From the NCBI RefSeq assembly GCF_963921235.1, contig NC_086108.1, positions 79,176,001 to 79,240,000 on the forward strand: a DNA stretch of 64,000 nucleotides. The letters are read 5' to 3'. This document shows positions 22,735 through 63,977 of the stretch, piece after piece. The notes beneath the pieces were generated by a model, which made no database searches, was not told the origin of the DNA, and worked only from the letters and a program-made list of their open reading frames with translations. This DNA is from Mobula hypostoma. Taxonomy: Eukaryota. Each line of letters starts with the position of its first letter. The first letter of the stretch is position 1. Made by a program: the position numbers and the translations under genes.

Positions 22735-23130
22735 AGACCATAGTTGATTATGTACCTCACATCTCTTTCACCCACTGTTCATGTACCCCTTGGATCCATG
22801 AACATCCACAAATCTATCATGTTCAACTTTGAATCATTTCACTGAGATTCTATAGCCCACTAAAGTAGAAATTTTCAAAGATTCCTAATCCATTTCGAAA
22901 GGAAATCTCTTCTCATCTCAGTCTGAAATGAGACCTCCACCTCATTTTCTATCCGTCAAGTTCTCAGCTGCTCATTCAGCATGTCTGTATCTTCTTGAAG
23001 CCTTTTTATGTCCTCCTCATTGCTCAGTCTCTTCTGGTTTTGCATCATTGGCATAGTAATCTTGGAAATATATTTCGTCCCTTCAATCAAATTGAATTTG
23101 AGATCTTGAATAATGGAGCCCTATCACCTG
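22735..23130 (-). mobile_element. Decayed CR1 fragments
   Basis: Similarity to the CR1 3' end and RT C-terminal segments elsewhere in the window. Confidence 0.5.
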
Positions 23131-23520: not shown

Positions 23521-24446
23521 TCCTAAACTCATAACTTTTAGCAGAAGAGAGTGAGTGCAAGGATTAGGGAGTGGAAGGTCAGTGGGGGGTAACAAACCAT
23601 TAACAACCTGCATGTAGAATAGTGTCACTTTGTGAATGTACAGCCTGAATGTTTAAGTACTCAAGCATTACGTTATATCAGGCCTGTCAAAATACTAAAG
23701 CTACTGCAGTATTGTTGCAATTTTCTTGGGAATGCACCCATTAAGGTTGTAGACATAAAATGCACTTTGAACATTAAGCTTATGTGCACCTTAGACAATG
23801 TGTACAAAAATAATCTTTTGAAAGGAAGTACAGCCTTTTTTGCTGTGAAGGAACACTGTGAGTCTGATAATTTTCTGACCAATGCCATCCAGAGGGCTCC
23901 AATTCCATAACTGTCTGTCTCTGGGTAACAGTAATGGGTTCGGGACAGGCATACAGTCAGGTCATATTAATTATGCACACTTTTAAAGATACAGTAGTCT
24001 GTGCTCAGTCAGCGTACAAAGTCTAGTGGCAAGGTGCGGCAGAGAGAATTTACTGAAATATTCAACTTGGACCTTAAATACTTCTGACTTCAAGGTAGCT
24101 GTAATATATTGTGGATTCAGGTCACAGTAATAATTTCCAGTTTAAAATCCGTAGCTGGGAGCTGCAAGTTTAGGGCAAATCCTGCTGGTCCAGTGACCTC
24201 CAAACTCAGAATTTATGCATGTGATAGCCTTGCTTCCCATCCTAGCTTCCGTAATTCCTGGTTCTGGATGTGAAAGGCCAATTCTGCCACTTGGCTTAGT
24301 GTCTGAAACTATGGTTTGAATAGTGATAGGTTCTCCAGTAGCATAATAAAGAGGCCTTGCCCCAGAACATGGTGAAGAGCTTTGCGGAATGGAACAGTCA
24401 CGTCACAGCTTGCTGGCAGTACACAGGTCATTTAAAGACTAAATTA

Positions 24447-24890
24447 AGAGATTCTGCAGATGCTGGAAATCCAGAGCAACACAAATAAAACGCTGGAGGA
24501 ACTTAGCAGAGCAGGCAGCATCTATGGAGACAATAAGTGGTTAATGTTTTCAGCTGAAACCCTTCATCGGGGCAACCAGGAACTTAAAATTGCTCACCCT
24601 TTCCACTGCTGACACCTCAGTGAGGACTGGCCCGAAACATCGACTGTTTAGTGAAATTTAAGAGACCACTAGACAGGTATATGGAGGAATTTAAGGTGGG
24701 GGGTTATATGGGAGGCAGGGGTTTGAGGGTCGGCACAACATTGTGGGCCAAAGGGCCTGTACTGTGCTGTACTATTCTATGTTCTATGTTCTATATGTTC
24801 ACTCTCTTCCATAGATGCTGCCTGGCCTGCTGAGTTCCTCTAGCATTTTGTGTGTGTTGCTTAGATTTCCAGCAACTGCAGATTTTTTTT
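24447..24890. mobile_element. Inverted pair of PLE termini with a Rex/Babar scrap at the junction and a nested CR1 3' end
   Basis: Left arm 24447-24571 (minus), right arm 24629-24650 plus 24796-24890 (plus); degenerate hammerhead remnants in both. Confidence 0.85.
24651..24795 (+). mobile_element. Short CR1 3'-end insertion
   Basis: (TTCTATG)n tail; flanking near-duplication TGTTTA 24645-24650 / TGTTCA 24796-24801. Confidence 0.85.
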
Positions 24891-32861: not shown

Positions 32862-32975
32862 AACCTGATGAAAGGTGTTTGATCTGAAACATAAACCACA
32901 TTTCTCTCTTCGCAGACGCTGTCTGACCTACTGAGTATTGCTATTCTTATTTCAGATTTCCAGCATCTGCAGTCT
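32862..32975 (+). mobile_element. Old PLE terminus with hammerhead core remnant
   Basis: CTGATGA-AAGGTGTTTGATCT-GAAAC-ATA at 32865-32893 (stem I no longer pairs); tail GATTTCCAGCATCTGCAG. Confidence 0.7.
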
Positions 32976-33139: not shown

Positions 33140-33350
33140 ACACAGGAGACTGCAGATGTTCGAATCTGCAGTGTAAAGAATATAGCTGAAGGAACTCAGC
33201 GGGCAAGCAGCATCTGTGGAGGCAAAGGTGCAGTCGACATTTTGGGTCAAGATCCTGCATCAGTCCTGACCCAAAACAGAAACCATCTTCTTGCTTCTAG
33301 AGACGTAGCTTGACCCACTGAGCTCCTTCAGCAGTTTCGGTTTTTTTTGC
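33140..33350. mobile_element. Old inverted pair of PLE termini
   Basis: Left arm (minus, with tail) to 33253; right arm (plus, no tail) 33254-33350. Confidence 0.75.
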
Positions 33351-35077: not shown

Positions 35078-35505
35078 ATAAGACCTCTACTGGAGACTTC
35101 CTTTATCCATTGTTTTCCAGTTATCCTGCAGCCATTTCTTTGCAAGGAGGCTGAAGTGAGATTCTTTTCTCAGGATACTACCACAGCTGCTCAATGCTAC
35201 AGAGTGAGGTGATGGGCTGGATCTCTATCTCATTCATTGTGTGTGAAAAAAATCTGGCTTTCAGTTCTGTTAAGCAAAGGTTAGACACTACTCTGTCGTA
35301 AATGTAAGTTTGAAAGATATACCGTTTAAACGGATCGAGATTAAGAAAGCAAATTTAACTGTTCATTGCTGTGTACAGATGTTTTTTCTTGTGTTTTTGA
35401 CCTTTCCTTTGCCATTGTGTGCCTGAAAACTTTGAGGTAAGGAATAACACACATCAAAGTTGCTGGTGAACGCAGCAGGCCAGGCAGCATCTGTAGGAAG
35501 AGGTG

Positions 35506-35543
35506 CAGTCGACGTTTCAGGCCGAGACCCTTTGTCAGGACTG
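35506..35543 (-). ncRNA. Hammerhead motif copy with core mutation (CUGACAA, G8 to A), probably inactive
   Basis: Reverse complement of 35865-35902 except position 35533 (CpG-type transition). Confidence 0.75.
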
Positions 35544-35864
35544 ACTGAAGGAAGAGTGAGTAAGGGATTTGAAAGTTGGAGGGGGAGGGGGAGATCCAAA
35601 ATGATAGGAGAAGACAGGAGGGGGAGGGATGGAGCCAAGAGCTGGACAGGTGATAGGCAAAAGGGGATACAAGAGGATCATGGGACAGGAGGTCCGGGAA
35701 GAAAGACAAGGAGGGATGGGGGACCCATGATCCTCTCGTATCCCCTTTTGCCTATCACCTGTCCAGCTTTTGGCTCTATCCCTCCCCCTCCTGTCTTCTC
35801 CTATCATTTTGGATCTCCCCCTCCCCCTCCAACTTTCAAATCCCTTACTCACTCTTCCTTCAGT

Positions 35865-35902
35865 CAGTCCTGACGAAGGGTCTCGGCCTGAAACGTCGAC
35901 TG
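35865..35902 (+). ncRNA. Minimal type I hammerhead ribozyme motif (PLE-associated), intact core
   Basis: Stem I CAGUC/GACUG; CUGACGA; stem II AGG-gucucgg-CCU; GAAA; C-GUC cleavage triplet (predicted cut after 35897); stem III reduced to palindromic ACGU. Confidence 0.85.
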
Positions 35903-36410
35903 CACCTCTTCCTAGAGATGCTGCCTGGCCTGCTGCGTTCACCAGCAACTTTGATGTGTGTTGCTTGAATTTCCAGCATCTGCAGAATTCCTGTCGTTTG
36001 AGGTAAGGAATAACTGCATTTTGTGCTTTTCAGATCAGCAGCAGAGTTTCTGTATGATGGCATTCTGCTGTTTTGAATACAATTCCCTCTCCTTTCATTT
36101 GTAATTTGATTAACATAGTCTTCACAACACTTTTTTTTTAAAGAAAGAAGCATTGAATTTTGAGAGATTACTTTTATTAGTCAGTTTGATGTGTCTGTGG
36201 TGAACAGACAGAATCTGTTCAAGACTGACAGCTTATGAATTGCAGTTTCACAGAGAAATAATTTGCACAGTTCTGGGAGAAAGCTTTAAGATAAGTAACT
36301 TTGCCTGTCAAGCAAGGCACAATGAGCGCTAATCTAACCACTTTGCTTCATGATACCGTACAGTAAGTAAAGTGCTTGTGGCAGTCATCAATAACAATAC
36401 TCAGAGATAT

Positions 36411-36984
36411 AAAAGACTGCAGCGGCTGGAGTCCGGAGCAACACACAACATGGTGGAGGAACTCAGTGGGTAAGACAGCATCTGTGGAGGGAAATGGCCG
36501 TTGGGCATATTGAATTGGGTCCCTGATTTGGACTGAAAATAGAGGGGAGAAAGCTAGTATAAAAAGGTGAAGGGAAGGGTTTGAGCAAAAACAGGCAAGC
36601 GACAAGGGTGAATCCAAGTGACAGACATGTGGAGAAGGGAAGAGTGAAAATGGTGACAGAAGCTCGGAGGTGGAGGCTATTCTTATCTGGATCCAACTAT
36701 TGCTTACAAGATCTGGCTCCACCCCTTCCCTCCACCTTTTTATATTGGATACCTTCCTTCTATCTGGCAATCCAGATGAAAGGTTTCATCTCAAAATACT
36801 GAATAAAGGTTATGGGGAGAAAGCAGGAGAATGGGGTTGAGAGGAAAATTGTTCAGTCAGGGTGAAATGGCAGAGCAGACTCAATAGGCCAAATGGCCTA
36901 ATTCTGCTCCTACGTCTTATGGGTGTCCATTGTCCTCCACAGATGCTACCTGACTCACTGAGTTTCTCAGATATCATGTGTGTT
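36411..36984. mobile_element. Old inverted PLE pair with nested CR1 3' end (36803-36923)
   Basis: Left arm with tail; right arm stops at GTGTGTT without tail; decayed hammerhead CAGATGAAAGG...CAAAATAC at ~36773-36800. Confidence 0.75.
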
Positions 36985-37229
36985 ACATGAGATTGCTCAA
37001 TTGTTATGAATCAGATCATCAATGTGTCAATAAGTGGTGAAGTAGTCCATTTCTACTGGGTGATCACAGTACAATTTGACATTGCTTGGCCTAATGGTGT
37101 TGGAGAAGGGGATCAACTTGCACCTGGATGTTCAATGATTAAAAAGCTTCATGAAATTTTGAGTATCAAGATAAGCAACATATTTTAGATCTATTTTACT
37201 TAGAAATCTATTTTCAGAATATTTTGATT

Positions 37230-38002
37230 TATAGCATTGGTGAACATCACATTGGAAGGACAAACTCAAATACAGCCACAAGGCTAATGGCAGCATTTTA
37301 AGCAGTGCGGAGGAACAGAGGGATCTTGAAGTCCAAATCCACAGATCCCTCAAGGTTGCCGCATAAGTTGATGGGGTCGTTAAGAAGGCATATGGTGTAT
37401 TGGCCTGTAATAGTTGGGTGACTGAGTTCAACAGCATTGAGATAATGTTTCAGCTCTAAAAAACTCTGGTTAGACCACACTTGGAGTATTAGGTTCAGTT
37501 CTGTTAGCCTCATTATAGGAGACATGTGGAAGATTTAGAGAAGATGCAGAGGAGATTTACCAGGATGCTGCCTGCATTAGGGAACATGTCTTATGAGGAA
37601 AAGTTGAACAAACTGGGGCTTTTCTCTTTGGAGCAAAGGAGGATGAAGCGTAACTTAACAGAGGTGTATAAGATGATAGGAAGCATACAGTAGATAGGGA
37701 GGACAGCCAGTGCTTTTTTCCCAGGTCGGCAATATGAGAAAACATATTTTTAAGATGATTGGAAGGAAGTATAGAGGGGATGTCAGAGATAGATTTTCTG
37801 CAGAAGAGAGTGGTAAGTGCGTGGAATGCACTGCTGGGAGTGGTAGCAGAAGCATATATTAGGGACATTTAGATAGGTACATAGAGAAAAATGGAGGGCT
37901 ATGGGGAAGAGAAGGGTTAGATTGATCCAGGAGTATTTTAGAAGATTAGCACAACATCGGGGTCCAAAGGGTCTGTACTGTGTTGAACTGTTCAATGTTC
38001 TT
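37230..38002 (+). mobile_element. CR1 3' fragment
   Basis: EEQRDL, LVRPHLEY, tail TGTTCAATGTTCT. Confidence 0.85.
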
Positions 38003-38509
38003 TTAGCATCTGATTAGCATTAATTTATAATCAGTGGAGTTGTTTGCAGCCTTGCACTTCTTTTGTAGGCTTGAGGGGCCAAGTGGCCTGCTGTCGTTCT
38101 TATCTCCTTATGTTCTTTTGTGCTGCTGGACTTCACTCAAAGGCAATAAGTAACTATTTAAGGACGTGTAAAACTTAAACTGCATTTCTCTCTTTTTTTT
38201 AAAGGATTAGCATTTGCCTGCCAAAATTCCAGTTCCCTTCAGACAGACTGCAGAGAACATTGCAACATAGAAAAATAAGCTCAGGAGTAGGTCACTTGGT
38301 CCATCAAACTTGTTCCACCTTTCAATGTAATCATGGCTAATCCTCTGAAATACCTTATCCTCATGCTATCCTTTGTAACTTTTGTGTCAAGAAATATATA
38401 TCCTTCTTTAACATATTCTCTTGACTTCCACAGCATTCTGTGGTAGAGAATTCCATATTTTATGATTCAATGCTCTCTCTGGGAAGAACCTTCTCCTCAT
38501 CTTCCACTT

Positions 38510-40406
38510 ACCAGCAGCCAGTCTGGGCATCGGAAGTTTTGAGAGGAGGGGACTTCAATCAGGTCTACTGCCCAAGGATAAAAGATAGCAATGGGCTGCA
38601 CCAGCAAAAAAAGAAATTTGCCCAGCGGCCAATCCGCGTTTGGGATTGATTAGTAAATCAATTGATTAGAGCAAATGAAAGGAAGACAGGAGCAAATGCA
38701 GCAGTTATCGTTGCAGTAGCTGTCGTCTGAGGGGACAGAGTCAGAGTGGTGATCTTGAGGGTTTAGCTCTTCAAGGCTTCAGTGAATAGAGTCAAAGAAT
38801 GCAAAGGAAAGAAAAATTATAGTTTTTTTTCCTTCTTTTCTTTATATCTCCTCAGCTGGGGACAGTGGAGACACCAGACAAGGTAGTGAAAAGCTCCTCT
38901 TGCAGGATGTGGGAAGGCAGGGAGACCTCCAGTGTCCCTGACGACCACAAATGTGAGAAGTGCATCCAGATGTAGCTTCTAACAATCCATGTTAAGGAAT
39001 TAGAGCTGGAACTGGATGAACTCCGGATCATTTGGGTACTGAAGGGGTGAGAGGTAGGGCACATAGAGAGGTAGTTACACCCAAGGTGCAGGAGACAGGA
39101 AAGTGGGTGACAGTCAGGAAGATGAAAGGGGTTAAGGAACCCAGTACCGAGTACCCCTGTGGTGATCCCCCTCAACAACAGGTTTCAATATTGTAGGGGG
39201 GAATGTCCTAACAGAGGAAAGTCACAGTGGTCAGGTCTCTGTGACTCAGAAGGGAATGGGAAGCTGTGGTGATAGAGGATTTGTTAGATGGGGGAACGGA
39301 CAGGAGATTCTGTGGGCAAGAATGAGATTCCTGGATGGTATGTTGCCTCCTGGGTGTCAGGGTCCAGGATATCTCAGATCGAGTTCTCAGCATTCTTAAG
39401 TGGGAGGGTAAACAGCCAGGATTGTGCTCCATGTAGGTACCAATGACATGGGTAGGATGAATTTAGAGGTTCTACATAGGAGTTCAGGAAGTTAGGTGCT
39501 AAATGAAAGGCCAGGAACTCCAGGGCTGTCCTCTCAGGATAGCTACCCATGCCACATGCTACTGAGGCCAGAACTTTGAAGATTATACAGCTTAATACGT
39601 GGCTAAGGAGTTGGTGTGGAAGGGAGGGCATAAGATTTTTGGATCATTGGACACTCTTCCAGGGAAGGTGGGACCTGTACAGAAAGGATGGTTTGCACCT
39701 GAACCGGAGGGGGACTAATAAGCTAGCGGGAAGGTTTGTTAATGCTGCTCAGTGGCATTCAGAGCTGCAGGGGGAAGGGGACCAGGGTGCCAGAGCATTT
39801 AGTGGAGAGGTTATGGAGGCAGATGTTGGTAAGACCTGAGACAAAATTAGGAATCAAGAGATCGAGTATGCTGTGACTAATATCCTGAGCTGCCTATATC
39901 TGAGTGCAGAAAGTATCATAGGAAAGGCAGATAATAGTGCTGAAGATGAGGTAGCTGGTTTACAAACAGGGGCAATGTGTAGTGAGGAGAGGCTGTTGAT
40001 AGGGCAAAATTGCAGTCAGCAGAGTGAGTTGCAACGTAAAAGGCAGTCAAAATCAAAATGGGTGAATACAGTACTGAAGGTAAACAACAGGAATTCTGCA
40101 GATGCTGGAAATTCAAGCAACATACATCAAAGTTGCTGGTGAACGCAGCAGGCCAAGCAGCATCTATAGGAAGAGGCGCAGTCGACGTTTCAGGCCGAGA
40201 CCCTTTGTCCTATAGATGCTGCTTGGCCTGCTGCGTTCACCAGCAACTTTGATGTATGTTGACAGTACTGAAGGTGTTGTATTTGAATATGTGCAGTATG
40301 TGGAATAAGGTAGATGAACTTGTAGCACAGTTGCATGTTGGCAGGTATGATGTTGAGAGCATCATTGAATCACAGCTGAAAGATTATAGCTGAGAGCTTA
40401 ATGTCC
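38510..40406 (+). mobile_element. CR1 5' region (UTR, ORF1 Cys-rich motif plus SGNH esterase, start of APE)
   Basis: SSCRMWE...CEKCIQ, HVGTND, FLDHW...KDGLHLN, LKVLYLN; split by a PLE at 40082. Confidence 0.88.
40082..40261. mobile_element. Short fold-back PLE insertion (36-nt tail, 54-bp perfect inverted arms)
   Basis: Arms 40118-40171 / 40208-40261; 14-bp TSD ACAGTACTGAAGGT 40068-40081 / 40262-40275; truncated hammerhead 40179-40209 (minus). Confidence 0.95.
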
Positions 40407-41659
40407 ATAAGACCAGAAGACCATAAGACATAGGAGCAGATTTAGGCCATTCAGCCCATCGAGTCTGCATCGACATTTCATCATGGCTGATCCTGGATCC
40501 CACTCAACCCCATACACATATCTTCTCACCATATCCTTTGATGTCCTGGCAGATCAAAAAACTTCAACTTCCGCCTTAGATGTACCCTGGACTTGGCCTC
40601 CACTGCAATCTGTGGCAGAGCATTCCACAGATTCACTACTCTCTGGCTAAAAAAAATTCCTCCTTACCTCTGTTCTGAAAGGTCGCCCCTCAATTTTGAG
40701 GCTGTGCCCTCTAGTTCTGGATAACTCCACCATAGGAAACATCCTCTCCACATCCATCCTATCTAGTCCTTTCAACATTCAGGAGATTTCAATGACATCC
40801 TCACACATTCTTCTAAATTCCAGCGAGTACAGGCCCAAAGCTGCCAAACATTCTTGATATATGAACCTTTTTATTCCCAGAATCATCCTCGTGAATCTCT
40901 ACCGGGAGCTGTCCAATGACAACACATCCTTTCTGAGATCTGGGACACAAAACTGTTTACAATTCAGCAAGTGCAGCCTGACTAGTGTCTTATAAGGGGT
41001 CAGCATTATCTCCTTGCTGTTGTATTCTATTCCACTTGAAATAAGTGCTAACATTGCATTTGTCTTCTTTACCACTGAATCAACCTATAAATTAAACTTC
41101 TGGGAGTCTTGCATGAGGATTCCTAAGCACCTTTGCACCTCTGATGTCTCTGTAATATCCTTTATTCCATTATCATACTGATACATATGACTTCTGCTTC
41201 TTCCTCTCAAATTGCAGTATGAATTCAGTCATATTATGATCACTAACTCTTAAGGTTTCCTTTACATTAAGCTCCTTAATAAGATCAGGGTTATTGCACA
41301 ACACCCAATCTAAGATAGCCTTTCCCCGAGTAGGCTCATGCACAAGCTGCTCTAAAAAGCCACCTCAGAGGCATTCAAAAAATTCCTTCACTGCGATCTG
41401 ACACCAACCTCATTTTCCCAATCCCCTCGCTTATTGAAGTCCCCCATTAAAATTGTGTCATTACCCTTATTACATGCCTTTTCCAGCTCCCTTTGCAATC
41501 TCAACCCCACATCTTGGCTACTACTTGGAGGCCTATATATGATTCCCATAGTGTTTTTTTTTAACCTTCTGCAGTTTCTGAACTCCACTCACAAAGTTTA
41601 AGCATTCTCTGACCCTATGTCACCTCTTTCGAAAGACGTAGTTCTATCTCTTACCAAAA
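40405..41659 (-). mobile_element. CR1 block on the minus strand: APE segment (41659-41148) fused to ORF2 C-terminus and 3' tail (41147-40405)
   Basis: IYRPPSSSQ, MGDFN; then EVQR... through to the CTTATGGTCTT tail. Confidence 0.85.
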
Positions 41660-42152
41660 GTGAGGTGCAAAGGGACTTGTAAGTCCTTGTGCAGGCTTTC
41701 CTAAAAGATAATTTGCAGGTTGAATCTGTGGTGAGGAAGGCAAATGCAATGTTAGCATTTGTTTCAAGAAGACTAGATAATAAAAGCAAGTATGTAATGT
41801 TGAAACTTTATAAAGCACTGGTGAGACCTCACTTGGAGTATTGTGAGCAGTTTTGGACCCCTTGTCTTAGAAAGGATGTGCTGAGACTGGAGAGGGTTCA
41901 AAGGAGTTTACGAAAATTATTCCAGGCTTGAATGACTTATCACATGAAGAGCATTTGAAGGCTCTGGGCCTGTATTCACTAGAATTCAGAAGAATGAGGA
42001 GTGACCTCATTGAGACCTATTGAATGGTGAAAGACCTTGACAGAGTGGATGTGGAGAAGATGTTTCCTATGGTGGGAAAGTCTGAAACCAGAGGACACAG
42101 CCTCAGAATAGAGGGGTGCCCTTTGAGAAAGGAGATGAGGAGGAATTTCTTT
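41660..42152 (+). mobile_element. CR1 ORF2 C-terminal fragment
   Basis: LYKALVRPHLEYCEQFW, TRGHSL. Confidence 0.9.
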
Positions 42153-43400
42153 AGACCATAAGGCCATAAGCTATTGGAGGAGAATTAGGCCATTTGGCTC
42201 ATTGAGTCTGCTCCGCCATTCAGTCATGTCTGATCTTTTCCCCTCCTCAGCCCCACTCCCCAACCTTCTCCCTTTAATCTTTGATGTTGTGTCCAATCAA
42301 GAATTGATCAAGCTCTTCCTTAAATATACCCAATGACCTGGCCTCCAGAGCTGCCTATGGTAACAAATTACAGAAATTCGATGTAATTTGACCTTTTCCG
42401 AATCCTTCTTATTAACTTGAATAGAGGAGCGGAGTTGACGACATTATTGAATGTATTCAATCTAATATATTGGTCTAGCCTTGTTTTGTTCTGTTTGTCT
42501 TCTTTTTGGGTTTTTTTTTGGTTTTTCTTTGCATTATTTTCTTTCCTTTTATTACTTTTTATTTTTTTTCTCTATGATTAACTATATTAAGAGTTTGAAA
42601 GTCTATTACACTTGTATTATTTGAAGTATTTTTGTACATGTTTATCAACAATAAGATTATTCCAATCTCTCTGTATCAATATTGTTATTCTGTTTATAAT
42701 TTTGGAAAATTAATAAAAAGATTTAAAAAGAAAGAAATTACAGAAATTCACCACCTCTGACTGAAGAAATTTCTCCGCATCTCTATTTTAAATGGATGGC
42801 CCTCTATCCTGAGGCTATGCCCTCTTGTCCTAGACTCCCCTACCATGGGAAACATCGTTTCCATATTTAATCTGTCTAGGCCTTTCATTCAAAATATTTC
42901 AATGAGATTCCCCCTCATCCTTCTAAATCCCAGCAAGTACAGGCCTAGAGACATCAAATGTTTCTCATTGATTCTTTCCCGGAATCATCCTTGTGAACCT
43001 CCTCTGAACCCTCTCCAATGCCAGCACATTGTTTCTTAGATAATGAGCCCAAAACCATGCCAGAGTCCAATGATTCTTGAAAGATCATTGTAATGCCTCC
43101 ACAATCTCTACTGCTACCTCTTTCAAAACTTTAGGGGGCAGTTCATCTTGTCCGGGTGATTTTTAGTTCTTTCGGTTTTTAGCACCTTCTCCCCTGGAGC
43201 TGCACTTGGATGCACCACACGATGTAGTTCCCTGGAAGACTTTGGGTCTCCCAGGACTCCAACGTCCGGCATGAAGAACACACAATGGCAATTTACTACA
43301 CTAGGTGCAGTAAGAGAGAGAGAAGAGCACCATTACAGAAACTTACCCAGAGGCAATGCCTCTTTTGAGCCAAAGCCTGACACTCCTACTCTCACCACTG
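42153..43400 (-). mobile_element. Mosaic of minus-strand CR1 pieces (3' end 42153-43055, RT N-terminal scrap, ORF1 start)
   Basis: Tail accataaggccataag; ORF1 Cys motif VCSSCRTL on the minus strand near 43280. Confidence 0.75.
42380..42734 (+). mobile_element. L1-type 3' UTR insertion
   Basis: T-rich UTR, AATAAA plus A-rich tail; 15-bp TSD AAATTACAGAAATTC 42365-42379 / 42735-42749. Confidence 0.85.
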
Positions 43401-43409
43401 CCTACTCTT

Positions 43410-44530
43410 ATGGTCTTACGGTCTTATCCTGAGGGTGTGACCCCTTGTTCCTGGTTTCCAGGCACAGAGTGCACCCTTCCCAAATCTAGCCTTCAAAATC
43501 CTTTCAGTATGCTATGTTTTGATGAGATCTCACTCTTCTACACACTGGAGAATACAGGCCTGATTGACACAAGCTCTGTTCATTTGAGGAGTTAGTATCA
43601 TCACAGGAGTCTATCTTATGAATCTTCATTGCATTCCCTCCTTGGTTAAAGATAAGGAGAACAAAGCGCTACTCAGTACTCTGGATGTGGCCTCCCCAAG
43701 GCCCTGTATAATCGTTGTAAAATATCCTTCCTCCTGTACTCCTGCAAGAAGGCCAACATACTCTTTTGCATCTTAACTGTGTGCTGCTTCCAGATATTTA
43801 TTTTCTGTGGCTGCATTTTGTTTCATTTTAGGTTTCCAATATCTATGTTTTTAAAAATATTTCAATTACTATTTAAATAAACCTGTACCTTATTGTTTTC
43901 CGACCACAGTGGCTAATTTCACATTTATGAATATTATTCTGCAACTGCCATGATGTGCTTGCCTACTTAATTTGACTTGTCGACATTGCCTTGCACCTTT
44001 TTCATATTTTACACTCCCACCCAGTTTAATGTCAACAGCAGATTTGGAAATGTTATGATCCGTCCTGTCATCCAAATGATTGATCACCGTGGCCCAGGCA
44101 CTGCTCCCTTTGATTGTACCTCCTGTTCTCTGTTTCCAATCTGCTAACTTATTTTCAATCTGCACTAGAACATCACCCCCAAACCACATGCTTTAATTTG
44201 CCCACTATCTTCTTAGATAGCACTTTGTCAAAGGTTTACTGAAAATCCAAATCCAACATGTAGTTGTTCCTTTTCACGTCGAGTGGCATTTTTGCTGTTT
44301 TTGTAACACTTGCCTGCTAGCTTGACACTCAACCCACCGCAGATGGAAAGCAAGCAAGGAGCCAGCGGGATTCGAACTCGGGAGCTTTCACCTCAAAGGC
44401 CGGTGCTGATGCCACTATACCATCGGCTGGCTAAACTACATTCCATGGTTCTCCTTTATCCATTCTGCCAATTACATCCTAAAAAACTCTTTTAGGTTTG
44501 TCAAATATTATTTCTTTTTCAAAAAATCTA
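43410..44530 (-). mobile_element. Old CR1 RT/C-terminal fragment
   Basis: ISKSAVDIKLGG (decayed KFADD); LDFQ*TFDKV on the minus strand. Confidence 0.75.
44262..44432 (-). mobile_element. tRNA-derived SINE (same family as 26668-26876)
   Basis: A-box TGGTATAGTGG, B-box GTTCGAATC, end GAAAAGGAACAAC. Confidence 0.8.
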
Positions 44531-44886
44531 GGTTTACTTGCATTACTAACTGCTGTGTGACCACTGAGAGGTGAGTCCTTCCAAGTTGTCTGAAAAACAT
44601 TCAAACTTTACCAGGAATTTCTTTGAAGTTTTCCTCTGAGACTGTTCTCTCATCCCAAATAATCAACTCTGAAGAATAAGCCCTTTTCGTGTTGCTCAGT
44701 GTTAAATGTTTACTTTGCCACATTGTGGACCAATTCTAAACTAAATCAATCTCATGTGTCCTCTGTGAGAAAAAGTGGTCATTATCATAAGTAAGGACAC
44801 TGACTTTCTGGGACATACACTCTTCTCGTTACCACCATCACAGAGGAGGTGCAGGAGCTTGAAGAATCAACACACAATGATTCAGT

Positions 44887-46081
44887 AACACACACAAAAT
44901 GCTGGAGGAACTCAGCAGGCCAGGCAGCATCTATGGAAAAAAGTACAGTTGACGTTTCGGGCCGAAGGTCTGGAGGTAAAAAACTGAGGAGTAGATTAAA
45001 AAGGTGAGGGGATGGGAAAGTGAAACACCAGGTGATAGGTGAAACCTGGAGGGGGAGGGACGACGTAAAGAGCTAAGAAGTTGGTTGGTGAAAGAGACAG
45101 AAGGCCATGGAAGAAAGAAAAGTGTGGGGGGGGGAGCGCCAGAAGGAGGTGATGGGAGGGCAAGGAGATAGGTGAGAGAGGGAAAACGTGATGGAAGATG
45201 TTGAAGGAGCGAGGGGGGTGGGGGCATAACTGGAAGTTTGAGAAATCGATGTTCATGCCATCAGGTTGGAGGCGACCCAAACAGAATATAAGGTGTTGTT
45301 CCTCCAACCTAAGTGTGGCCTCATCATGGCAGTGGAGGAGGCCATGGATGGACGTATTGGAATGGGAATGGGAAGTGGAATTAAAATGGGTGGCCACTGG
45401 GAGATCCCACTGTTTCTGGCAGACGGAGCATAGATACTTGGCAAAACGGTCTCCCAATCTAAGTCGGGGCTCACCAATATACAGGAGGCCACACTGGGAG
45501 CACCGAAAATAGTAAGTAACCCCAATAGACTCACCTCCCTTGGAAAGACAGTTTCGGGCCCTGAATGATAGTGAGGGAGGAGGTGTAGAGTCAGGCATAT
45601 CACCTGATCCGCTTGCAAGGGTAAGTGCTAGGAGGAAGAAGAGTGGGGAGGGATGTATGGACAAGGGAGTCATGTAGGGAGCAATCCCTGTGGAGAACAA
45701 AAAGTTGGGGAAGGGGAGGGAAAGATTTGCTTGGTGGTGGGATCCCATTGGAGGTGGAGGAAGTTTTGGAGAATTATGTGCTGGATGTGGAGGCTGGTGG
45801 AGTGGTAGGTGAAGACAAGAGGAACCCCATCACTGGTCGGGTGGCGGGAGAATGGGGTTAGGGCAGACATGCGTGAAATGGAAAAGAAGTGGTTGAGGGC
45901 AGCGTTGATGGTGGAGGAAGGGAAGCCCCTTTCTTTGAAAAAGGAGGATATCTCCTTTGTTCTAGAATGAAATGCCTCATCCTGAGAGCAGATGCAGCGG
46001 AGTCGGAGGAATTGAGAACAGGGGATGGCGTTTTTACAAGTAGTGGGGTGGGCATGTGCAGATTTTCTCTTGCTTGTGACT
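44887..46081 (-). mobile_element. Penelope-like retroelement, truncated (RT thumb/linker plus GIY-YIG endonuclease plus terminal repeat), inserted in a Rex/Babar scrap
   Basis: 12-bp TSD CAATGATTCAGT 44875-44886 / 46082-46093; inverted tail piece 46052-46081; hammerhead region partly deleted at 44947-44970. Confidence 0.93.
45225..45530 (-). pseudogene. GIY-YIG endonuclease domain of a PLE
   Basis: VTYYFRCSQCGLLYIGEPRLRLGDRF...PVATHFN...RLEEQHLIFCLGRLQPDGMNIDF. Confidence 0.9.
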
Positions 46082-49000
46082 CAATGATTCAGTGACAACT
46101 TCTTCCCCTCCACTATCATATTTCTATATAATCCACAACATTTTACCCAAATTCCACCATCATGTCAGCAGCGAATAAACAGACCGAACCATGTTTATAT
46201 AAGCAGACACGGTACTTACAAAGCCACCCCAGGCCCTCATCTTGGTCTGTCTAACCACATCTCCATAATGTTAATCCCAGCATACCAACTGCTGCTGAAA
46301 ATTGAGAAACCAGTCAAGAGGACCATCACCATATGGCCTAATGAGGCAATCTCTCTGCTTCTAGGCTGTTTTAAAATGACTAATGTTTGAGGAGGCGGGC
46401 ACAAACGGAGAAGGCACAGACCTTGAGGAATATACCTCATCTGTCACTGGCTACATCAGTAAGTGTGTAGACGATGTTGGTACCTCACAAATGGTCATCC
46501 CAGACCCAAACAGTCAGGGATGCCGCTTTTAAGCCTGGAGGCATCAAGAGGTCAAAGGCTGCCTATGCACAAAAAAATTCAGGAACACCTGTCGATAACA
46601 ATCCCCGGGAACGTGGCTGAGCAACAAGGGCATAACTAACTGTGCAAGGAACAACAGTATGAACTGCACCAGTGAAGCCTCCCTCCCCAATGCTCCAAAC
46701 TTTCATGCACGCTTTGAGGCTTGCAACACAATGACGGCCATGAAAGCTAACAGTCCGTCCCCACCCCTCTGGGTGAGCAGCAACCGCTTACAACTGTGTT
46801 GGTCTTCCCAAATAAAACTGCTTGAAGTGTTTTATGTTTCAGAAAAACTGTAACACATCTTGTTGAACTCCAAAACCTGAGCTCAAAGTATGCCAAAACC
46901 CTTTACGTGGTTGCGAATTATGTGCATTTCCACCAATTACATTACTCGCTGCCAGAATTCAGTGAAACCAGCATTGTGAACCTACCTGGAGCTCGGCCGA
47001 GCCACCCATCTCGGGTCCTATGCTCCATGGGTGGAGGAACAGCAGGTACCTCTGGCTTGTCCAGAGGTGTGTTGCCACACTAATGGTCATGTTGTGACAG
47101 GGGTATCATAGCAGGTCACTGGCTTAAGGTGATCTACTGAAATGCATTCAGCTTTGCCCCTCTTATCCATGATAGAAGTAATTTCTCCCTGTTCCAAAAC
47201 GCAGAACGGGCCATCATAAGGGAGCCTAAAGGGATGTTGGTGTGCATCGTGGTGGAAGAAAACAAGTGAGGCAGAAGGTAAGTCAACAGGGACCTTAGAG
47301 TGCTGTCCACCATAAAGGGAGGTAGGAGCGGGTGAAAAGGAATTAAGTTTACCGAGGAGAGTAGAACACTGTGAGAGGCTGACCAGGTGGTTGTGGTGTC
47401 GGGAATGAAATCACCAGGCACTTGAAACAGCTGCCTGTATGCCAACTCAGCCATGGACAACAGCAGGTCCTCTTTTGGAGCTGTCCTGAGCCCCAGCAGG
47501 ACCCACGGGAGACGAGCAACCCAGGTGCTGATGGTTGCCTGAGCCGTGTCTGTGGCCGTCGTTGATGCTAGGGGGACAACCTCTGGACGCCTGGTGGTAC
47601 AGTCCACCATGATAAGGAGGTGCGTGAAACTGCGGGAGGGAGGAAGAGGACCAGCAAGGTCCACTTTGACAGTCAAACCGTCGCTCAGGAACTTCAAAAG
47701 CTGCCAGTGGTGCCGGTTAATTTTTGCCTGCTGGCACTGTAAAAAGGCTGCACTCCAATCACACATGTCCTTTTGAAGGCCCTGCCACACAAATTTTAAT
47801 GCAGCCATTTTCTGTGAGGCCTTCTGACTCGGATACGAGAGGCCATGTATGGAGTCAAAAACATTCCGCCTTCAGTTTGCAGTCATGATGGGGCAAGGGC
47901 AAACGGTTGAGACATCCGACAGGAGGGAAACCCCAGCTTTCCTGAACTTAATATCAGCCAACCGCAGGCCCTTGACTGCTGTTCGGTAAGCCTGGATCTC
48001 CATGTCAATAGCTTAGTCGGCTGCCATGCCGGCATAGTCAGCCCTTGTGTGTGTATGGCCTCAATGGCTGGGCGTGAGAGGCAATCAGCCACAGCATTAT
48101 TTTTCCCCTTGATATGTTGTATATGGGTCTGATATTTTGGCCATCGTGTGTATGAGGGGTTTGTGATCAGCGAGCACTATGAAATAGTGACCCTCTGGGA
48201 GAAATCGAAAATGGTGGACAAACAGATAGAGACTGAGAAGCTCACGGTCAAACATGCTGTATTTTCTTCCAGGCGGGCGGAGCTGGCGGCTGACGAAGGC
48301 GAGTGGCTGTCACACACCTCTAACCGACTTGTTCATGCACAGCACCCACAAGCATAGTCCGAAGTCAGTAGTACTGGGCAGCAGGTGTTCCAGTAGGGTC
48401 ACATTAGAAAGAGCTTGTTTGGTATCATCAGATGCCATGGTCGTGACCACTGACCGTCAAGCACTTGTTTAGGGTGTTGCCTTTAAGCATATTAAACAGG
48501 GGGAGCATAAGTTCAGCAGCTCGCTGAATGAAGAGGTGATAGAAGTTAACCATACCTAAAAACTCCTGAAATTTTTAGTAGTGTGGGGCAGTGGGAATTC
48601 CATAATAGTGGCTAATTTTGATGGGAGGGCTTTCCCACCCTCCGTGGAGATGTGATGGCCGAGAAAGTCAATGGTTGACAACCCAAACTGGCATTTAGCA
48701 GGGTTAATAATCAAGCCATGTTGGCTTAAGCACTCAAGAAGAGTGCGGAGATGAGATACGTGTTCAGACTTGGGATGCACTGGTGACAAGTATGTCATCC
48801 AGGTAGACAAAAAGAAAAATCTACGTTTTTTAATACAGAGTTCATCAGCCATTGCAAAGTCTGTGCTGCATTTTTCAGTCCAAACAGCTTGCGCAGAAAC
48901 TCAGAGAGCACAAGCAGGGTTATCACAGCCATTTTGTGAATTTCCTCCGAGCACACGGGCACCTGATGGTTGCTCCTAACTAACTGATGTGGGACCGGGA

Positions 49001-50823: not shown

Positions 50824-52389
50824 ACATTTTATTGGACACCAAACTCTGAACACAAAGTATGCTGAAATGTTTCATGTGATTACATCATCACGTCAGACCA
50901 GCCTCTCAAAGTGCAACCCCAACTCAATGTCGGCGATTGTGAATTATGTACGTTACCACCAATCACATTATCCTACAACAGCAGCAGATGTGAGAAGGAC
51001 TCTGCAGAGAGTCAAGTCCATAAGGCTGCCGGGTCAGGAAACATCCTAGGTTGAGTACTCAGGGGTGTGCACACCAGCTCACTGACATCTTCATGGACAT
51101 CTTCATCACATCACTCATCCAGGCTGCAGACAAATCGGCCACCATCATCCTTGAACCAAAGAACTCTACACCTTCAGATCAAAATGACTACCGCCCAGTG
51201 GCACTGGCTTTGAATGACTGGTAGTGACACACGTCAAAAACTCCATTCTTGCCACACTGGACATAACCCAATATGCTTACTGACAGAACTAGTCTATGAC
51301 AGATCCCATAGCAATGTCCTGCTCCTCAGTCTAAATACACCACTGTACAATTAGGTGTTGGACTTCCTAACCAACAGACCTAAGAAAGTCAGGATGCACA
51401 ATTGCTCCTCCCTCTCCCTCCATCAACCACAACACAGGTACCCCCAGGCCTGGGTGCTGAACCCACTGCTGTACATGACTCACACATGACTGTACAACAA
51501 AATACCCAAGTGATCACATTTTCAAGTTCATCAATGACATGACGGTGGTAGGGCTCATCACCAACAGTGATGAGATGGCCTACAGAGAGGGGGTGGAAGG
51601 GTTTGAGGCCTGTGGCTAGGCAAATAGTCTCTTCCTCAATGTCAACAAGACCAAGGAGATGATTATCGTCTTCAGGAGAACTTGCTGAACTCACACCCCT
51701 CTTTACATCGGCTCACAGCAGTGGAACCTGCGAGCAGCTTCAAACACCTGGGAGTGCACATTCTGCATAAGCCCTCATGGTCCCAGAACACATCCTACAC
51801 AACCAAGAAGGTTCACCAGTGCACCTAGAGAGCTGGACTATGCACATCAATACTCACGACTTTCTACAGATGCACGGTAGAGAGCATCCTAACAAGTGGC
51901 ATCATTGCACGGTACGGAAACTGCTCCGCGGTAGACAGAAAGCCTCTACAACGGGTCGTCAAAACTGCCCAGTACATCACCGGTACCAGACTGCCTGCCA
52001 TCAGCGACATATATATAGCAGGGTGCCAGAAAAAAGGCTAGCAATATCATGAAGGATTCCACCCATCCTGCTTGTGGACTGTTTGTCCCACTCTCATCAG
52101 GGAAGAGGCTATGTAGCGTCCATACCAGGACCACCAGACTCAAAAAACAGTTACATACCCCAAGTAGTGAGGCTGATCAACTCCTCCACAACACCTCCCA
52201 CTACCATTAGCTTATCATTTTCTGTCAGTCACTTTATGCACATAACAATCTGTATACAGTATATAAGCTATCTTAAGTATTTATTTTTATTGTGTTCTTA
52301 TCTAGTCCAAACTTCATGTTTATATTTTTCAAAAATAGTTCTGCTATTCAAATTAATTGCTTTAGCTTTACTGATGATGTAAAGAACAA

Positions 52390-53640
52390 ATGATAATCAA
52401 TTTTGTCATTCTAAATCAGGCCCAGAGGAAAAGAAGAAATCTTTCATGTTGTTAATCGACTACCAAAAAGCATTTGATTCTGTCCCATACTCATAATTAA
52501 TAGAAGTTCTTAATATATATTCACTATATCTAATGGTTGTGAAAATTTAAATTGTCCATGTGTAGAAGGTGAGTCAAGGTATAATCCATTTGGTTGTTTC
52601 TGATTTGATACCCCATTTTCATCTGATTCAGTAAATTAGAGAACAGGACTAAAGCTAGACAAAGCCATAGTGGGCTTAGAGAGTTGCCCTGGAAAATGCC
52701 TGGGTTTATTGTGATAATGGTGGTTGTTCTTTTTTGTTGTTAATAGAATAATTATAGTATGCCAATGCTTCATCAGATGATGTAAAAACTTCACAAGTAT
52801 TGGGTGGAGTTAATATATATTAAGAACTGATACTAAGCATGAGTGTGTGACAGAATCAAATGCTTTTTGGTAATCAATATATCAACATGAAAGATATCTG
52901 CTTTTCCTTCGGGCTTGATTTACAATGACAGAATCTACTATCAGTTGTTCTTTACATCCTTTCATACCTTACGGCATCCTTTCTGCTCTTCTGTAAGTAT
53001 ATTATAGTTATTGAAGTAAGTGGTGATTAGTTGCGAGATGCATGTTGTCACAATAATATAGAGTTTGTAAACAAGTAATAGGATAATATTTTGATAGATC
53101 ATTTGTGATTTCTCCTGCAGGTAAGAGATATGTTTTACCTTATTATTGTTGTATTTTTATTTTTTCTCAGCTCAAGTTGGTAAAACCTGAGGTACAGGCA
53201 TAGCCAAGCACACTCATTTCTCAATTGCAAGGGACTTTTGGATTATTCTACTGGTGTTTAGTATTGTGGCTTTCTGGAGATTTACGTAGATATTGCTGTG
53301 TAGCAATAATTGGTTGGTGCTATTGTGTAGTGCCTTTGGGATGATACTAGTTGTAGATACTACTTTCAGGACAATGTATACCCTGTTCATGTTCCAAAGC
53401 CTTTCAATTTCTTCTTTTAATTCAGCATATTTCGACTGTTTTTCTCTTATTGATTTTTGTATGTTATGTTTTGTAATGGCTATATCTATTAAGTAAGTTG
53501 CTCTTTCTCATTCATTCTGTACTATTATATCTGGATGGTTATTATGGATTGTCTTATCTGTAACAATGGATCAGTTGTAATATAATTTGACCCTAAAACT
53601 GGATCAGGCTTGTATTTATAGTAAGGAATGGTTTCTTTTA
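52390..53640. mobile_element. R4/Dong-clade LINE fragments (RT and restriction-like endonuclease), rearranged
   Basis: IDYQKAFDSV on both strands (52455 plus, 52880 minus), GIFQGNSLSPLWLCLAL, NHPDIIV...KYAELKEEIERLWNM (minus). Confidence 0.8.
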
Positions 53641-56592: not shown

Positions 56593-57330
56593 CAGTGGAT
56601 TCCAGTTAATTGGGACACATCAGTACCAGTACATTTTGGCCCAGTTAAACAGTGCCCCAGTTAGCCAAAGTTCCATGGAAATAGTTAAAAACGGGATTAA
56701 AATAGACAAACTATCATTTCCATGAGTAACACTACTAATATTACTACAGTACTATAGAACTGTGCATGATTTCCTAATAGTTATCAACTGAGGAATTCAT
56801 CTAGAGTTCGCTATCATGCTTGGCTGCAAGTGAACAAAATCAGTGCAGACCTCTATTGCAGATAATGGACTGCCTTCATACAATGCTTTCAATAACTGTA
56901 TCCTCCAAATCTCCATTTTTCATTGTAGCATTCAAGGTGATTGTGGCTACCTTCAAATTCTTCGTAGGTGCTAACTTGTTGAAGAAGTGAAATCATTTCA
57001 CTTTAACTCCTGGCCGTTTCTGGCATCTCCAAGTCTGAATGCTTCAAGCACAGTGAGCAAAACAGTTTTGAGCTGTCTTAGAGCTTATTTCTCACCAAAT
57101 ATCAGTGAGGAAAATAAGTACAGTGTTGTGTCTAACGGCCATGCAAGTGCACACGACTGATGCTACTTAGAAACTGTGCAGCAACAGTATTCTGTCCCAA
57201 TTAAGAGGCACAGTGCCAAAATAAATGAAGGGAATCCTGGTTATTTTCTCAATTAGTTTTTGTTAAGAGTTCTCTCAACAATTGAGTTCTGCCTCAATTA
57301 ACCAATGGCCCAATTAACCAGAGTCAACCA
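56593..57330. mobile_element. Tigger/pogo-like (Tc1-mariner) deletion derivative inserted in an old CR1 fragment (56240-56590, 57331-57390)
   Basis: TA flanks; left end CAGTGGATTCCAGTTAATTGG, degenerate right end CCAATTAACCAGAGTC; acidic transposase-tail-like remnant on the minus strand. Confidence 0.7.
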
Positions 57331-57453
57331 TATTATGAAGTTATGCAATTCTCTACCCCAGAGAGCTGTGAAAGCTAATTTGCTGATACAATTCAGCTAT
57401 TTAGCATTCACAGCTCTCTGGGGTAGAGAATTGCATAACTTCATAATATGGTT
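57326..57453. repeat. Inverted repeat with 47-bp perfect arms
   Basis: 57326-57372 is the exact reverse complement of 57407-57453; pairing continues imperfectly inward. Confidence 0.95.
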
Positions 57454-61875: not shown

Positions 61876-62169
61876 AGAACACACACTACGTTTTACCAAG
61901 TACACTTTATAGATATTACTAAGTCTATGAAATTAATATAAATTTGGTACAGAAAAGGAAGAAGGTCTAGGCCTGCTCCCAATTTACAAGTTCTTATCGC
62001 TGCAATTTCTGTAAAAATCTCTAAGAAATGCATATTCTTCCATCTCGGATCCCTCTCCATAATCATTCTCACCATTGTCTGCCATGTCTTCAACTACCTT
62101 CATCCAGAATTCTCTTTCCAACCCTATTCCCTTTTCTCCTCCTTATATAAATGTTAAACAAACTACAAA

Positions 62170-62300
62170 CAATTGAAAATCTGCAAATGCTGGAAATCAA
62201 AGTAATACACACAAAATGCTGCAGGAACTCAGCAGGCCAGGCAGCATCTATGGAAGAAAGTAAACAGTCGATCTTTTTGCCCAAAACATTGACTGTTAAA
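62170..62300. mobile_element. PLE terminus with small inverted piece
   Basis: Tail plus terminal repeat (minus) to ~62272, then GCCCAAAACATTGACTGT (plus). Confidence 0.8.
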
Positions 62301-63977
62301 CTATCTCTTTGACAACAGGCTTTTCACCTTGCCAGATGTCACCACCATTGGCTTGGTGGTTACTTTTGCTTGATTTCCTCCTGATTGTCAATGGAAATAA
62401 GGGACTTAATAGATTGTTGAGCTATACAGCACATACCTGCTTTACGAGAAGTCTAAATTCAAATTTGCTTCCAATGCGTCCTTTCATTGCTTTGCATAAA
62501 ATCAATATCATCAAAGGTCTCTGAAATAAAATGAAGGTATTTACCACTAATCTGTCCAAAGGGCCTTTCCATCTGTTGATTACTCTGTGCTAGAAAGTAC
62601 TTCTGAATATCAATGCGGTATCATCTATAACTATTTTTGACATCCAGATGGCATCTCAACACTGAAGCAATGGGTGGTACCAATCAGAATTTCATGCCAC
62701 CAGTTTTTCCATGATGAGAGTGGAGAATTGCTGTGATTTTGTTCACAACATACAGATGACAATGTACAGATGTCTAACCAGTTACCATAGCAATAGAAGG
62801 AAATCAAGAGAATACAGTCAGAGACAGTAGCTGGAATTTTAGTTATAGTGAAAGGAAATTAAAATTACACTAGGTTGCAGTATTTTGCAGGTCCTAATTT
62901 TATAAAAAATACGATCAATATTATACTTGTAATTAATCTAGATCATTGGTGTTTCATTTTGCAATTCTTGATAAAATATTATCGTGAAGTACGTCCAATA
63001 TATGACTTGCAAGCAAGGAAACCTGAGAGTGCCCCTGCTTCTGTCAGCAACTCAAAGCCCACACTGTTACGTAAATGCTAAGGGGGAAGACGCCTGTTCC
63101 CATTATACTGAACACACATACTTCTTGTAAGAATAGAAAAGGCAAGCATAAAGCATTCAGAGTGAAAGCTTTCATATGTCTTTTTGTCTTTATCTTCAAA
63201 ATATCTTACTTTGTGGATTATCAGCAATGCCCTCAGTCTAAATAACCAACCATTTTGGAAAATGAAATACCCTGCAGCTATCTGCAGGGAGAATGAGCAA
63301 GAAACAATGTTCTGCTTTTGAGTTTAAATGCTGCGACCACAAGGGAAAATGAAGGGAAATAAATTGCCCAGAGGCAAGATTTTGAGGAAGAACTTAAGTT
63401 TGCTTGATAGAATAGAATGAATGAATTCTCTTCCCAAAACCCTGAGGACCTCTTAATTCAATAACTTGGAACAGAAAATTGTGCTTATGGAAGTTTAATC
63501 AGCAAGATGTTTTTGAAATCTTAATGGAGCTCTGCAGCTCTTCAAAGTTCAGACCTCAGTCAGTGCTAGAAGCAAATAGTTTGACTCTGATATAGGAAGA
63601 GTAATAGGTGATTGGAGTGATAATAAAGCAGTAACCTAATCGAGGGTTTCAGATGAAAGAAGACCTGTGTTGCTGCTAGGTTTGAGTGGTTTCTGCCTGA
63701 CTCCTGAACACCTTGATTAGATTACTGCTTTGTAATCTTATCAGGTTTCTTTGCTGCATTTCCTTTTTGTAAGGTTAAATATATAGAGTGATAAGTTTGC
63801 CTTCGTTCACTCCTATAATCTGTATGCAGCAGTACTAACCACTGCTATACCCACCTCCAGCCATTCAGTTCCATTGTCATTGAAGTAAAGGCCCAACAGA
63901 AGAGCAGGGCCTTATCTTTCACAGTACCCTCCTAATTGGATCCTGGGAACAGTATGTAGTTTTATATATCAACAGAC

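Follow-up and report, generated by a model that had tools for sequence, protein, structure and literature searches.

A Penelope-like element in the window

The 64-kb stretch of Mobula DNA analyzed here (the window) contains three young repeat insertions, at 35431-36014, 40068-40275 and 44875-46093, together with older copies (Table 1). Judged by its sequence, the repeat is an endonuclease-bearing (EN+) Penelope-like element (PLE), and it is probably Neptune-type. A tblastn search of the window revealed ORF sequence in insertion 3 only, and this copy is devoid of the RT core. The closest named proteins come from rays. Insertion 3 matches residues 90-395 of protein P0001 at 64-73%; P0001 has an RT YIDD motif upstream and a Pfam GIY-YIG match (E 0.00046) of 20.9 bits, just below the 22.6 cut-off. 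Protein-atlas matches at 0.92 were to clusters whose members are 23-41% GIY-YIG. With window pieces alone, none of five Pfam scans and no PDB search returned a match. Two cysteines of a CCHH zinc finger lie between GIY and YIG. The window copy keeps both of them and the second histidine; the first histidine, present in five of six homologs, is substituted. An extra CX2-5CxxC motif in the RT-EN linker, which marks the Neptune/Nematis clades (PMC8557442), was found in five of six homologs; in the window copy its first cysteine is kept and the other two are stop codons.

Table 1. Coordinates of the insertions, older copies and the candidate ribozyme motif in the window
Feature	Position	Strand	Description
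Insertion 1, left TSD copy	35431..35448	.	18 bp maximal; final 3 letters fit arm start too
Insertion 1, tail-less arm	35446..35723	-	~278 nt from internal site, with 39-nt 'loop' 35685-35723
Insertion 1, tail-bearing arm	35723..35999	+	~240 nt + 37-nt tail 35963-35999
Putative minimal hammerhead-ribozyme motif	35865..35902	+	pattern search; core 35870-35894, 65 nt before internal site
Insertion 1, right TSD copy	35997..36014	.	exact repeat of left copy
Insertion 2, left TSD copy	40068..40081	.	14 bp, within LINE-like host repeat
Insertion 2, tail-bearing arm	40082..40209	-	36-nt tail 40082-40117 + 92 nt
Insertion 2, tail-less arm	40208..40261	+	54 nt; 2-nt central overlap
Insertion 2, right TSD copy	40262..40275	.	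exact repeat of left copy
Insertion 3, left TSD copy	44875..44886	.	12 bp, within older repeat
Insertion 3, tail-less arm	44887..46053	-	~1,165 nt, second subfamily: terminal region + decayed ORF end
Insertion 3, decayed ORF end	45227-46053	-	thumb, linker, GIY-YIG; frameshifts and stops
Insertion 3, tail-only piece	46052..46081	+	30 nt; lacks ~13 tail letters adjoining internal site
Insertion 3, right TSD copy	46082..46093	.	exact repeat of left copy
Older head-to-head copy	33140..33350	.	left arm tailed, right arm tail-less, 3-nt central overlap
Older head-to-head copy	36411..36985	.	left arm tailed; tail-less right arm split by other repeat (~36805-36922)
Exception copy 62177	62167..62311	.	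tail-bearing arm + short inverted arm ending ~60 nt before internal site

The predicted cut position of the putative hammerhead motif follows 35897. A core pattern is also present at 32865-32890, and the core patterns are flanked by pairing stems. No hammerhead was among the 16 Rfam matches listed; these were rejected, all being below gathering scores and mostly miRNA models on the palindromes. The fold z-score of -0.34 does not support a conserved RNA hairpin at the inner site. Contig data indicate, qualitatively, that the family is very abundant. DNA patterns of the terminus had no match in viral, prokaryote-genome and metagenome collections, and the element protein gave three candidates, none confirmed, among viral contigs. 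A fuzzy terminus-motif match at 22963-22984 was discarded, not being a copy of the element.

Tails, internal ends and target-site duplications

Structure, target-site duplications (TSDs), fixed ends and arm geometry were read directly in the window, which is a small sample from a single locus. Exact TSDs of 18, 14 and 12 bp surround insertions 1, 2 and 3, the lengths that had been given in an earlier, sequence-only reading. Among random pairs of 30-nt segments spaced 150-1300 nt apart, at least 12 shared letters occurred in 1 of 20,000 pairs and at least 14 in 0 of 20,000. The TSDs bracket whole structures, and none was seen at the centres. Three letters at either end of the 18-bp TSD of insertion 1 are compatible with both element and target, and the true stagger is therefore 12-18 bp. 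Target-element overlap at the outer junctions amounts to 3, 0 and 0 letters in insertions 1, 2 and 3, respectively.

The sequence-only reading had described a Penelope-like element with a tail of 34-37 nt, or its last ~30, on one arm, and an inverted arm that starts without the tail from a fixed internal point, one tail-length from the terminus. This description is supported. Tails of 37, 36 and 30 nt are present, one arm each, in insertions 1, 2 and 3, and the tail-less arms of these insertions and of older copies 33140 and 36411 end at one internal site, within ~3 nt. All six clear head-to-head copies in the window have the tail on exactly one arm. The scatter of arm endpoints that the same reading had named as counting against its rule was not seen in five of the six; the exception, 62167-62311, stops ~60 nt short. 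The statement that 33140 and 36411 obey the rule holds for the internal end; a search for a TSD of at least 9 letters, allowing up to 2 mismatches, found none in either copy. A convincing TSD was found in none of the seven older copies searched, and a search at 62167-62311 found none. Copies 10093, 32900 and 58917 have a tail and no inverted arm. A head-to-head pair, 24451/24800, has tails on both sides and may be a single old insertion with two tails; this pair and 62167-62311 are absent from the list of the sequence-only reading.

The tail-less arm extends closer to the element head than its tail-bearing partner in three of the five fixed-end copies: the excess is 39 nt in insertion 1, 5 nt in 33140 and ~1,165 nt in insertion 3, whose arms do not overlap. 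Such a tail-less arm can therefore not be a copy of the tail-bearing cDNA, nor can the tail be a copy of the tail-less arm. The 39-nt 'loop' of insertion 1 can be aligned in register with insertion 3's long arm, a score reached by 3 of 1000 shuffles. The arms overlap by 239 nt in insertion 1 and by 54 nt in insertion 2. All 54 positions are identical in insertion 2, and 5 of 239 (2.1%) are mismatched in insertion 1. The latter value lies between flank divergences of 1.4% and 4.1% (insertion-bearing versus seemingly insertion-free organism), as would be expected of arms that started out identical. The two parts of insertion 3 do not overlap and thus form no palindrome, so among the three young insertions the claim of a palindromic product holds for 1 and 2.

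Single TSD copies had been predicted at empty sites, and paralogs within the window confirm this for insertions 2 and 3. Three paralogous host-repeat copies span the empty site of insertion 2 in alignment, each with a single TSD copy, and a paralog at 23501-23424 likewise spans that of insertion 3 (E 0.006), again with one TSD copy. Among the contigs listed, none spans an empty site of either insertion. Contigs from two of four runs, compared with the reference from 35963 on with the left flank excluded, are compatible with the absence of insertion 1, from which we infer an empty site. In contigs of organisms H and C the match begins at 35997 and 36000, respectively, after 116 and 567 unaligned letters. 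Loose contig ends piled at 44884-44890 (850-2,763 contigs per place and run) were set aside as evidence, because the reference has no tail there, so that clipping of tail-bearing copies falls on the same position. Among the joints listed, out of more than 15,000, those from other repeats' ends to exactly 44887 were carried by 16-39 contigs per run, which is a weak hint.

Comparison with known systems

The architecture is textbook for PLEs, and our data change little in this respect. The suggestion that the rule might be undescribed in this lineage does not stand for PLEs, where it is already published; for sharks and rays, a literature search found no description of it. EN+ PLEs have inverted pLTRs with a one-sided tail of 30-40 nt (Arkhipova et al. 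2013, PMC3846280; Craig et al. 2021, PMC8557442). Like the Mobula copies, they have an inverted 5'-truncated copy adjoining the element, the tail at one end, a TSD around the whole unit and a hammerhead motif in the terminal region (putative in Mobula). TSDs of the rotifer examples are 8-10 bp, compared to 12-18 bp in the ray-like fish Mobula. How PLE integration is completed and how inverted copies originate are called open in PMC8557442 and PMC11167929.

The biochemistry of Poseidon of Anolis carolinensis (PAc) was described by Frangieh et al. 2024 (PMC11167929). Two RT start sites bracket the PAc tail and agree with the ends of genomic copies, and the arm ends of the Mobula element are placed in the same way. 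In vitro, both target strands are nicked and extended, and starts do not depend on target homology; the 0-3-letter outer-junction overlaps of the Mobula insertions match such homology-independent starts. The PAc protein is a predicted dimer. PAc belongs to the Poseidon clade, whereas relatives of the Mobula element bear the extra cysteine linker of Neptune/Nematis. In the parts of PMC11167929 considered, no head-to-head insertion is modelled, the two sites are not assigned one to each strand, and later steps are called unvalidated.

In L1 twin priming, as described by Meyer et al. 2010 (PMC2837659), a single RNA yields parts that do not overlap and are accompanied by a deletion. L1 twin or dual priming resembles the Mobula case in that both target strands are primed and the inverted parts lie inside TSDs; insertion 3 is similar to an L1 variant whose non-inverted part is very short, and insertions 1 and 2 to two-RNA dual priming (PMC2837659). 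L1 belongs to a different element class; its tail is poly(A), and its internal priming site varies, being set by where annealing to the overhang of the target occurs (PMC2837659), whereas in Mobula the inner end is fixed in five of six copies, the target overlaps are those given above and the arms may overlap. Non-overlap with internal deletion is seen in insertion 3 only. The term twin-priming-like, used by the sequence-only reading, thus fits insertion 3 in its L1 sense; it does not fit insertions 1 and 2, which copied the same RNA stretch twice.

None of 29 metagenome loci matched the window's element at the DNA level. An element end was seen only in L019 (=L020), L017 and L022, the last two with one end only. 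L019, from a distant animal, has a 13-bp TSD, a tail-less arm of 1,075 nt and a tail-bearing arm of 148 nt, the arms being 88% alike over 99 nt. Its geometry is that of the Mobula insertions, with the tail-less arm longer and containing sequence missing from the tail-bearing arm.

Origin of the head-to-head copies

We consider it probable that the copies are 5'-truncated EN+ PLE insertions composed of two target-primed cDNAs, one begun at an outer and one at an inner start, joined head to head. The GIY-YIG nuclease would cut the two target strands 12-18 bp apart, and each free target 3' end would prime a separate cDNA on element RNA, the outer site being the tail end and the inner site lying ~36 nt upstream. 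Each cDNA would halt at an arbitrary length, the two would be joined head to head, often via 1-3 matching letters, and the TSD would arise by fill-in. An outer cDNA halting within the tail would leave a tail and an inverted long arm (insertion 3); when both cDNAs pass the inner site, a palindrome would result (insertions 1 and 2). Of the readings considered, priming of both target strands fits best and is supported in vitro by PMC11167929; outer/inner pairing of starts in a given event, the mode of joining and the use of one or two RNAs are parts of the model that we infer. The longer reach of the tail-less arm, once without overlap, argues for two separately primed cDNAs over fold-back. The earlier proposal of second-strand priming at a fixed site is retained as far as both strands are concerned; its order of strands is not given by the sequence.

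A stronger version, in which dual priming is obligatory and programmed in PLEs, with a dimeric enzyme using outer and inner RNA sites on opposite strands and head-to-head joining, is conceivable but doubtful. If it were true, one reaction would yield every tail, inversion and palindrome, and self-priming would be unneeded. Several observations speak against dual priming. Overlapping arms require that the same RNA stretch be read twice, and no measurement here explains that. PAc start sites are equal on both strands in vitro, which alone predicts no one-tail rule (PMC11167929). The window also contains the short inverted arm of 62167-62311, the possibly two-tailed 24451/24800 and three tailed copies lacking an inverted arm, and the arms of L019 are no more than 88% alike. 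In the literature searched, which excluded Evgen'ev and Arkhipova 2005 and Arkhipova 2006, no published statement of outer/inner pairing on opposite strands was found. Three text files of the PMC11167929 supplement gave no match; figures S1-S2, possibly bearing on novelty, were outside that search. Which arm reaches further and how frequent tail-only arms are separates fold-back from two-strand priming, and genomes rich in young copies can supply such counts of arm geometry without experiment.

The published views differ from two-strand priming in the source of the tail, PMC3846280 favouring self-priming and PMC8557442 nuclease resolution. Accordingly, a hairpin could be formed by self-priming or fold-back and then cut by the nuclease at staggered inner and outer sites before integration, which we regard as unlikely. 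Identical arms with common variants, as in insertion 2, and short central overlaps are accounted for by such a hairpin, and trimming at the inner site could strip the tail from the longer arm. However, insertion 3 needs a 1.15-kb loop closing exactly within the 40-nt tail, L019 needs a loop of ~1 kb, and in vitro the tail ends are RT start sites on target-primed products (PMC11167929).

Simple fold-back, in which the first, tail-bearing cDNA serves as its own template up to the inner site, is very improbable. The longer tail-bearing arm of insertion 2 and of copy 36411 agrees with it, but it is impossible for insertions 1 and 3, 33140 and L019, where the tail-less arm has sequence missing from the tail-bearing arm. 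Insertions 1 and 3 contradict it as a general mechanism, and what is left to it is the role of a second route. Least credible of all is an origin of the inverted shapes from two independent insertions, from later rearrangement or from assembly error: neighbouring copies do occur in an abundant family, and 24451/24800 may be such a pair, but a single TSD brackets every whole structure, the arms of one insertion are closer to each other than to other copies, and the insertion 1 tail junction and the insertion 3 inner junction are present in contigs of two organisms.

The inserted element and its relatives

The sequence-only reading of the insertions as Penelope-like elements (PLEs) was correct. 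On the minus strand, the 1.17-kb arm of insertion 3 codes for residues 90-395 of the homologous protein P0001 with 64-73% identity, the coding stretch being disrupted by frameshifts and stops. Of seven homologs, six are assigned to the ray genera Mobula and Hypanus (62-83% identity), and the host is probably likewise a ray or a near relative. A GIY-YIG match, slightly below the Pfam cut-off, was obtained in four of the six homologs scanned, and the longer homologs contain an RT motif and a cysteine-rich linker. By the definitions in the available part of PMC8557442, the element is a C-terminal-endonuclease PLE, probably of the Neptune or Nematis clade. A pattern search located a candidate hammerhead core 65 nt upstream of the inner site (the internal point where tail-less arms end); this core was not scored in an Rfam search. 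Several ray gene models among the homologs, one named as a kinase-domain isoform and one as mucin-2, consist mostly of PLE RT/GIY-YIG sequence and are likely annotated transposon fragments.

Target site duplications and empty sites

All three insertions were found where they had been placed from the sequence, each flanked by exact target site duplications (TSDs). Among 20,000 pairs of 30-nt windows drawn at random, one had 12 letters in common and none had 14. At insertion 1, three letters at either TSD end are compatible with element and target alike, so the stagger is 12-18. No convincing TSD was found in any of seven older PLE copies searched.

Coordinates of PLE copies and other features in the window
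Feature	Span	TSD copies	TSD
Insertion 1	35446-35999	35431-35448 / 35997-36014	18 bp, exact
Insertion 2	40082-40261	40068-40081 / 40262-40275	14 bp, exact
Insertion 3	44887-46081	44875-44886 / 46082-46093	12 bp, exact
Head-to-head copy 33140	33140-33350		
Head-to-head copy 36411	36411-36985		
Head-to-head copy 62177	62167-62311		
Facing copies 24451 and 24800	24446-24890		
Short repeat in PLE terminal region	24655-24795		
Short repeat in PLE terminal region	36805-36922		
Near-perfect palindrome	57326-57453		
Sequence with inverted ends	52376-52958		

That an empty site should hold a single TSD copy was confirmed on paralogs within the window for insertions 2 and 3, where an older host repeat becomes continuous once the insertion is taken out together with one of its TSD copies. 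The site of insertion 2 is crossed by three paralogs (12324-12496, 28065-27832 and 4028-4122; E 2e-27 to 3e-07) and that of insertion 3 by one (23501-23424; E 0.006); the window contains no paralog of the insertion 1 site. Four public sequencing runs (organisms A, B, H and C) were compared against positions 35963-47000. Contigs of two of the four, A and B, contain the tail junction of insertion 1. In contigs of H and C the match starts at 35997 and 36000, preceded by 116 and 567 unaligned letters, as expected for absence, so these two organisms probably lack insertion 1.

Tails and inner ends

Eleven PLE terminal copies were counted in the window, six of them clearly head-to-head, i.e. with two inverted arms. 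As had been proposed, the tail (the 30-37 nt terminal stretch) is confined to one arm in all six. The proposed fixed inner end holds in five, where the tail-less arm ends within ~3 nt of the inner site, and fails at copy 62177, whose inverted arm ends ~60 nt short and whose TSD search was negative; either a deletion occurred here later or the copy truly departs from the rule. Copies 24451 and 24800 face each other head-to-head with one tail each, also with a negative TSD search. They are either two insertions or one two-tailed insertion, and the latter would break the rule. Copies 10093, 32900 and 58917 have a tail and no inverted arm.

The right PLE end of the facing pair carries an inserted short repeat, and the same kind of repeat lies within the terminal region of copy 36411, in both cases between hammerhead and inner site. 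All four runs contain recurrent junctions of such short-repeat ends with this site. Two PLE subfamilies (insertions 1 and 2 versus insertion 3) are ~80% alike over the terminal 80 nt and have one common inner site. Read depth in the first-subfamily bin relative to the second varies widely across the four organisms, depth being no copy number.

The rule is not special to this lineage, because metagenome loci show it as well. A metagenome scan with P0001 yielded 29 loci, none with DNA likeness to the window element. One of them (L019, overlapped by L020; 2440-3682), in animal DNA, is a complete head-to-head PLE insertion with a 13-bp TSD, a tail-bearing inverted arm of 148 nt and a tail-less arm of 1,075 nt. 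Its tail of ~50 nt exceeds the 30-40 nt given for PLE tails in the literature covered. Of L017 only the tail-bearing end is on the contig, and of L022 only the tail-less end, which lies at the same inner site; the opposite end of each falls outside the contig.

Arm geometry and priming

The long arm of insertion 3 aligns in register with the 39-nt spacer of insertion 1, a fit equalled by 3 of 1000 shuffles. The spacer is thus the tail-less arm continued, and this arm extends 39 nt beyond the tail-bearing one. Insertion 3 consists of a tail-less arm of ~1,165 nt and 30 nt of tail, with ~13 nt missing in between, and in copy 33140 the tail-less arm begins 5 nt further in. In insertion 2 and copy 36411 the tail-bearing arm is the longer. 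Two, one and three letters are shared at the centre of insertion 2, insertion 3 and copy 33140, respectively. The arms of insertion 2 are identical (54/54), and three letters common to both differ from insertion 1. Between the two arms of insertion 1 there are five mismatches over 239 positions, two in CpG context, a divergence between that of the flanks of organisms B (11/767) and H (24/~580).

This geometry favours two cDNAs, each with its own priming event, that were joined end to end. Where the arms overlap, one stretch of RNA must have been read twice; a dimer holding two RNA molecules, a tandem transcript with two terminal repeats, or strand displacement could each account for this. Nuclease trimming of a hairpin intermediate is a possible but less likely route, and the available part of PMC8557442 attributes the 30-40 bp tail, often at one end only, to nuclease resolution; for insertion 3, however, this route requires a 1.15-kb loop that closes within the tail. 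Simple fold-back is excluded as a general explanation, because neither arm is, as a rule, a copy of the other. We therefore consider programmed two-strand priming rather likelier than fold-back, the arm geometry providing a modest, testable argument.

The head-to-head architecture is real, non-random and already published. In vitro, according to the available sections of PMC11167929, both target strands are cut and extended, and reverse transcription has two start sites, one on either side of the tail, which coincide with genomic copy ends and show no strand difference, later steps being left unvalidated there. Twin and dual priming are defined for L1 in the portion of PMC2837659 available. 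The passages covered of PMC8969392, 10.64898/2026.07.22.740005 and 10.1101/2024.12.14.628481 contribute no decisive point. The literature searched contained no report of the one-tail/inner-site rule in sharks or rays, and no pairing of one outer (tail-end) with one inner start per insertion, although reviews of 2005 and 2006 may state it.

Two other inverted structures lie in the window. The 128-nt near-perfect palindrome (arms matching at 53/55) is built of a LINE-like repeat fragment that occurs again at 38425-38457; it has no clear TSD and is a fold-back of non-PLE sequence. The second, of 583 nt, has inverted ends of 169 nt at 83% identity, is single-copy within the window and is either MITE-like or an old fold-back.
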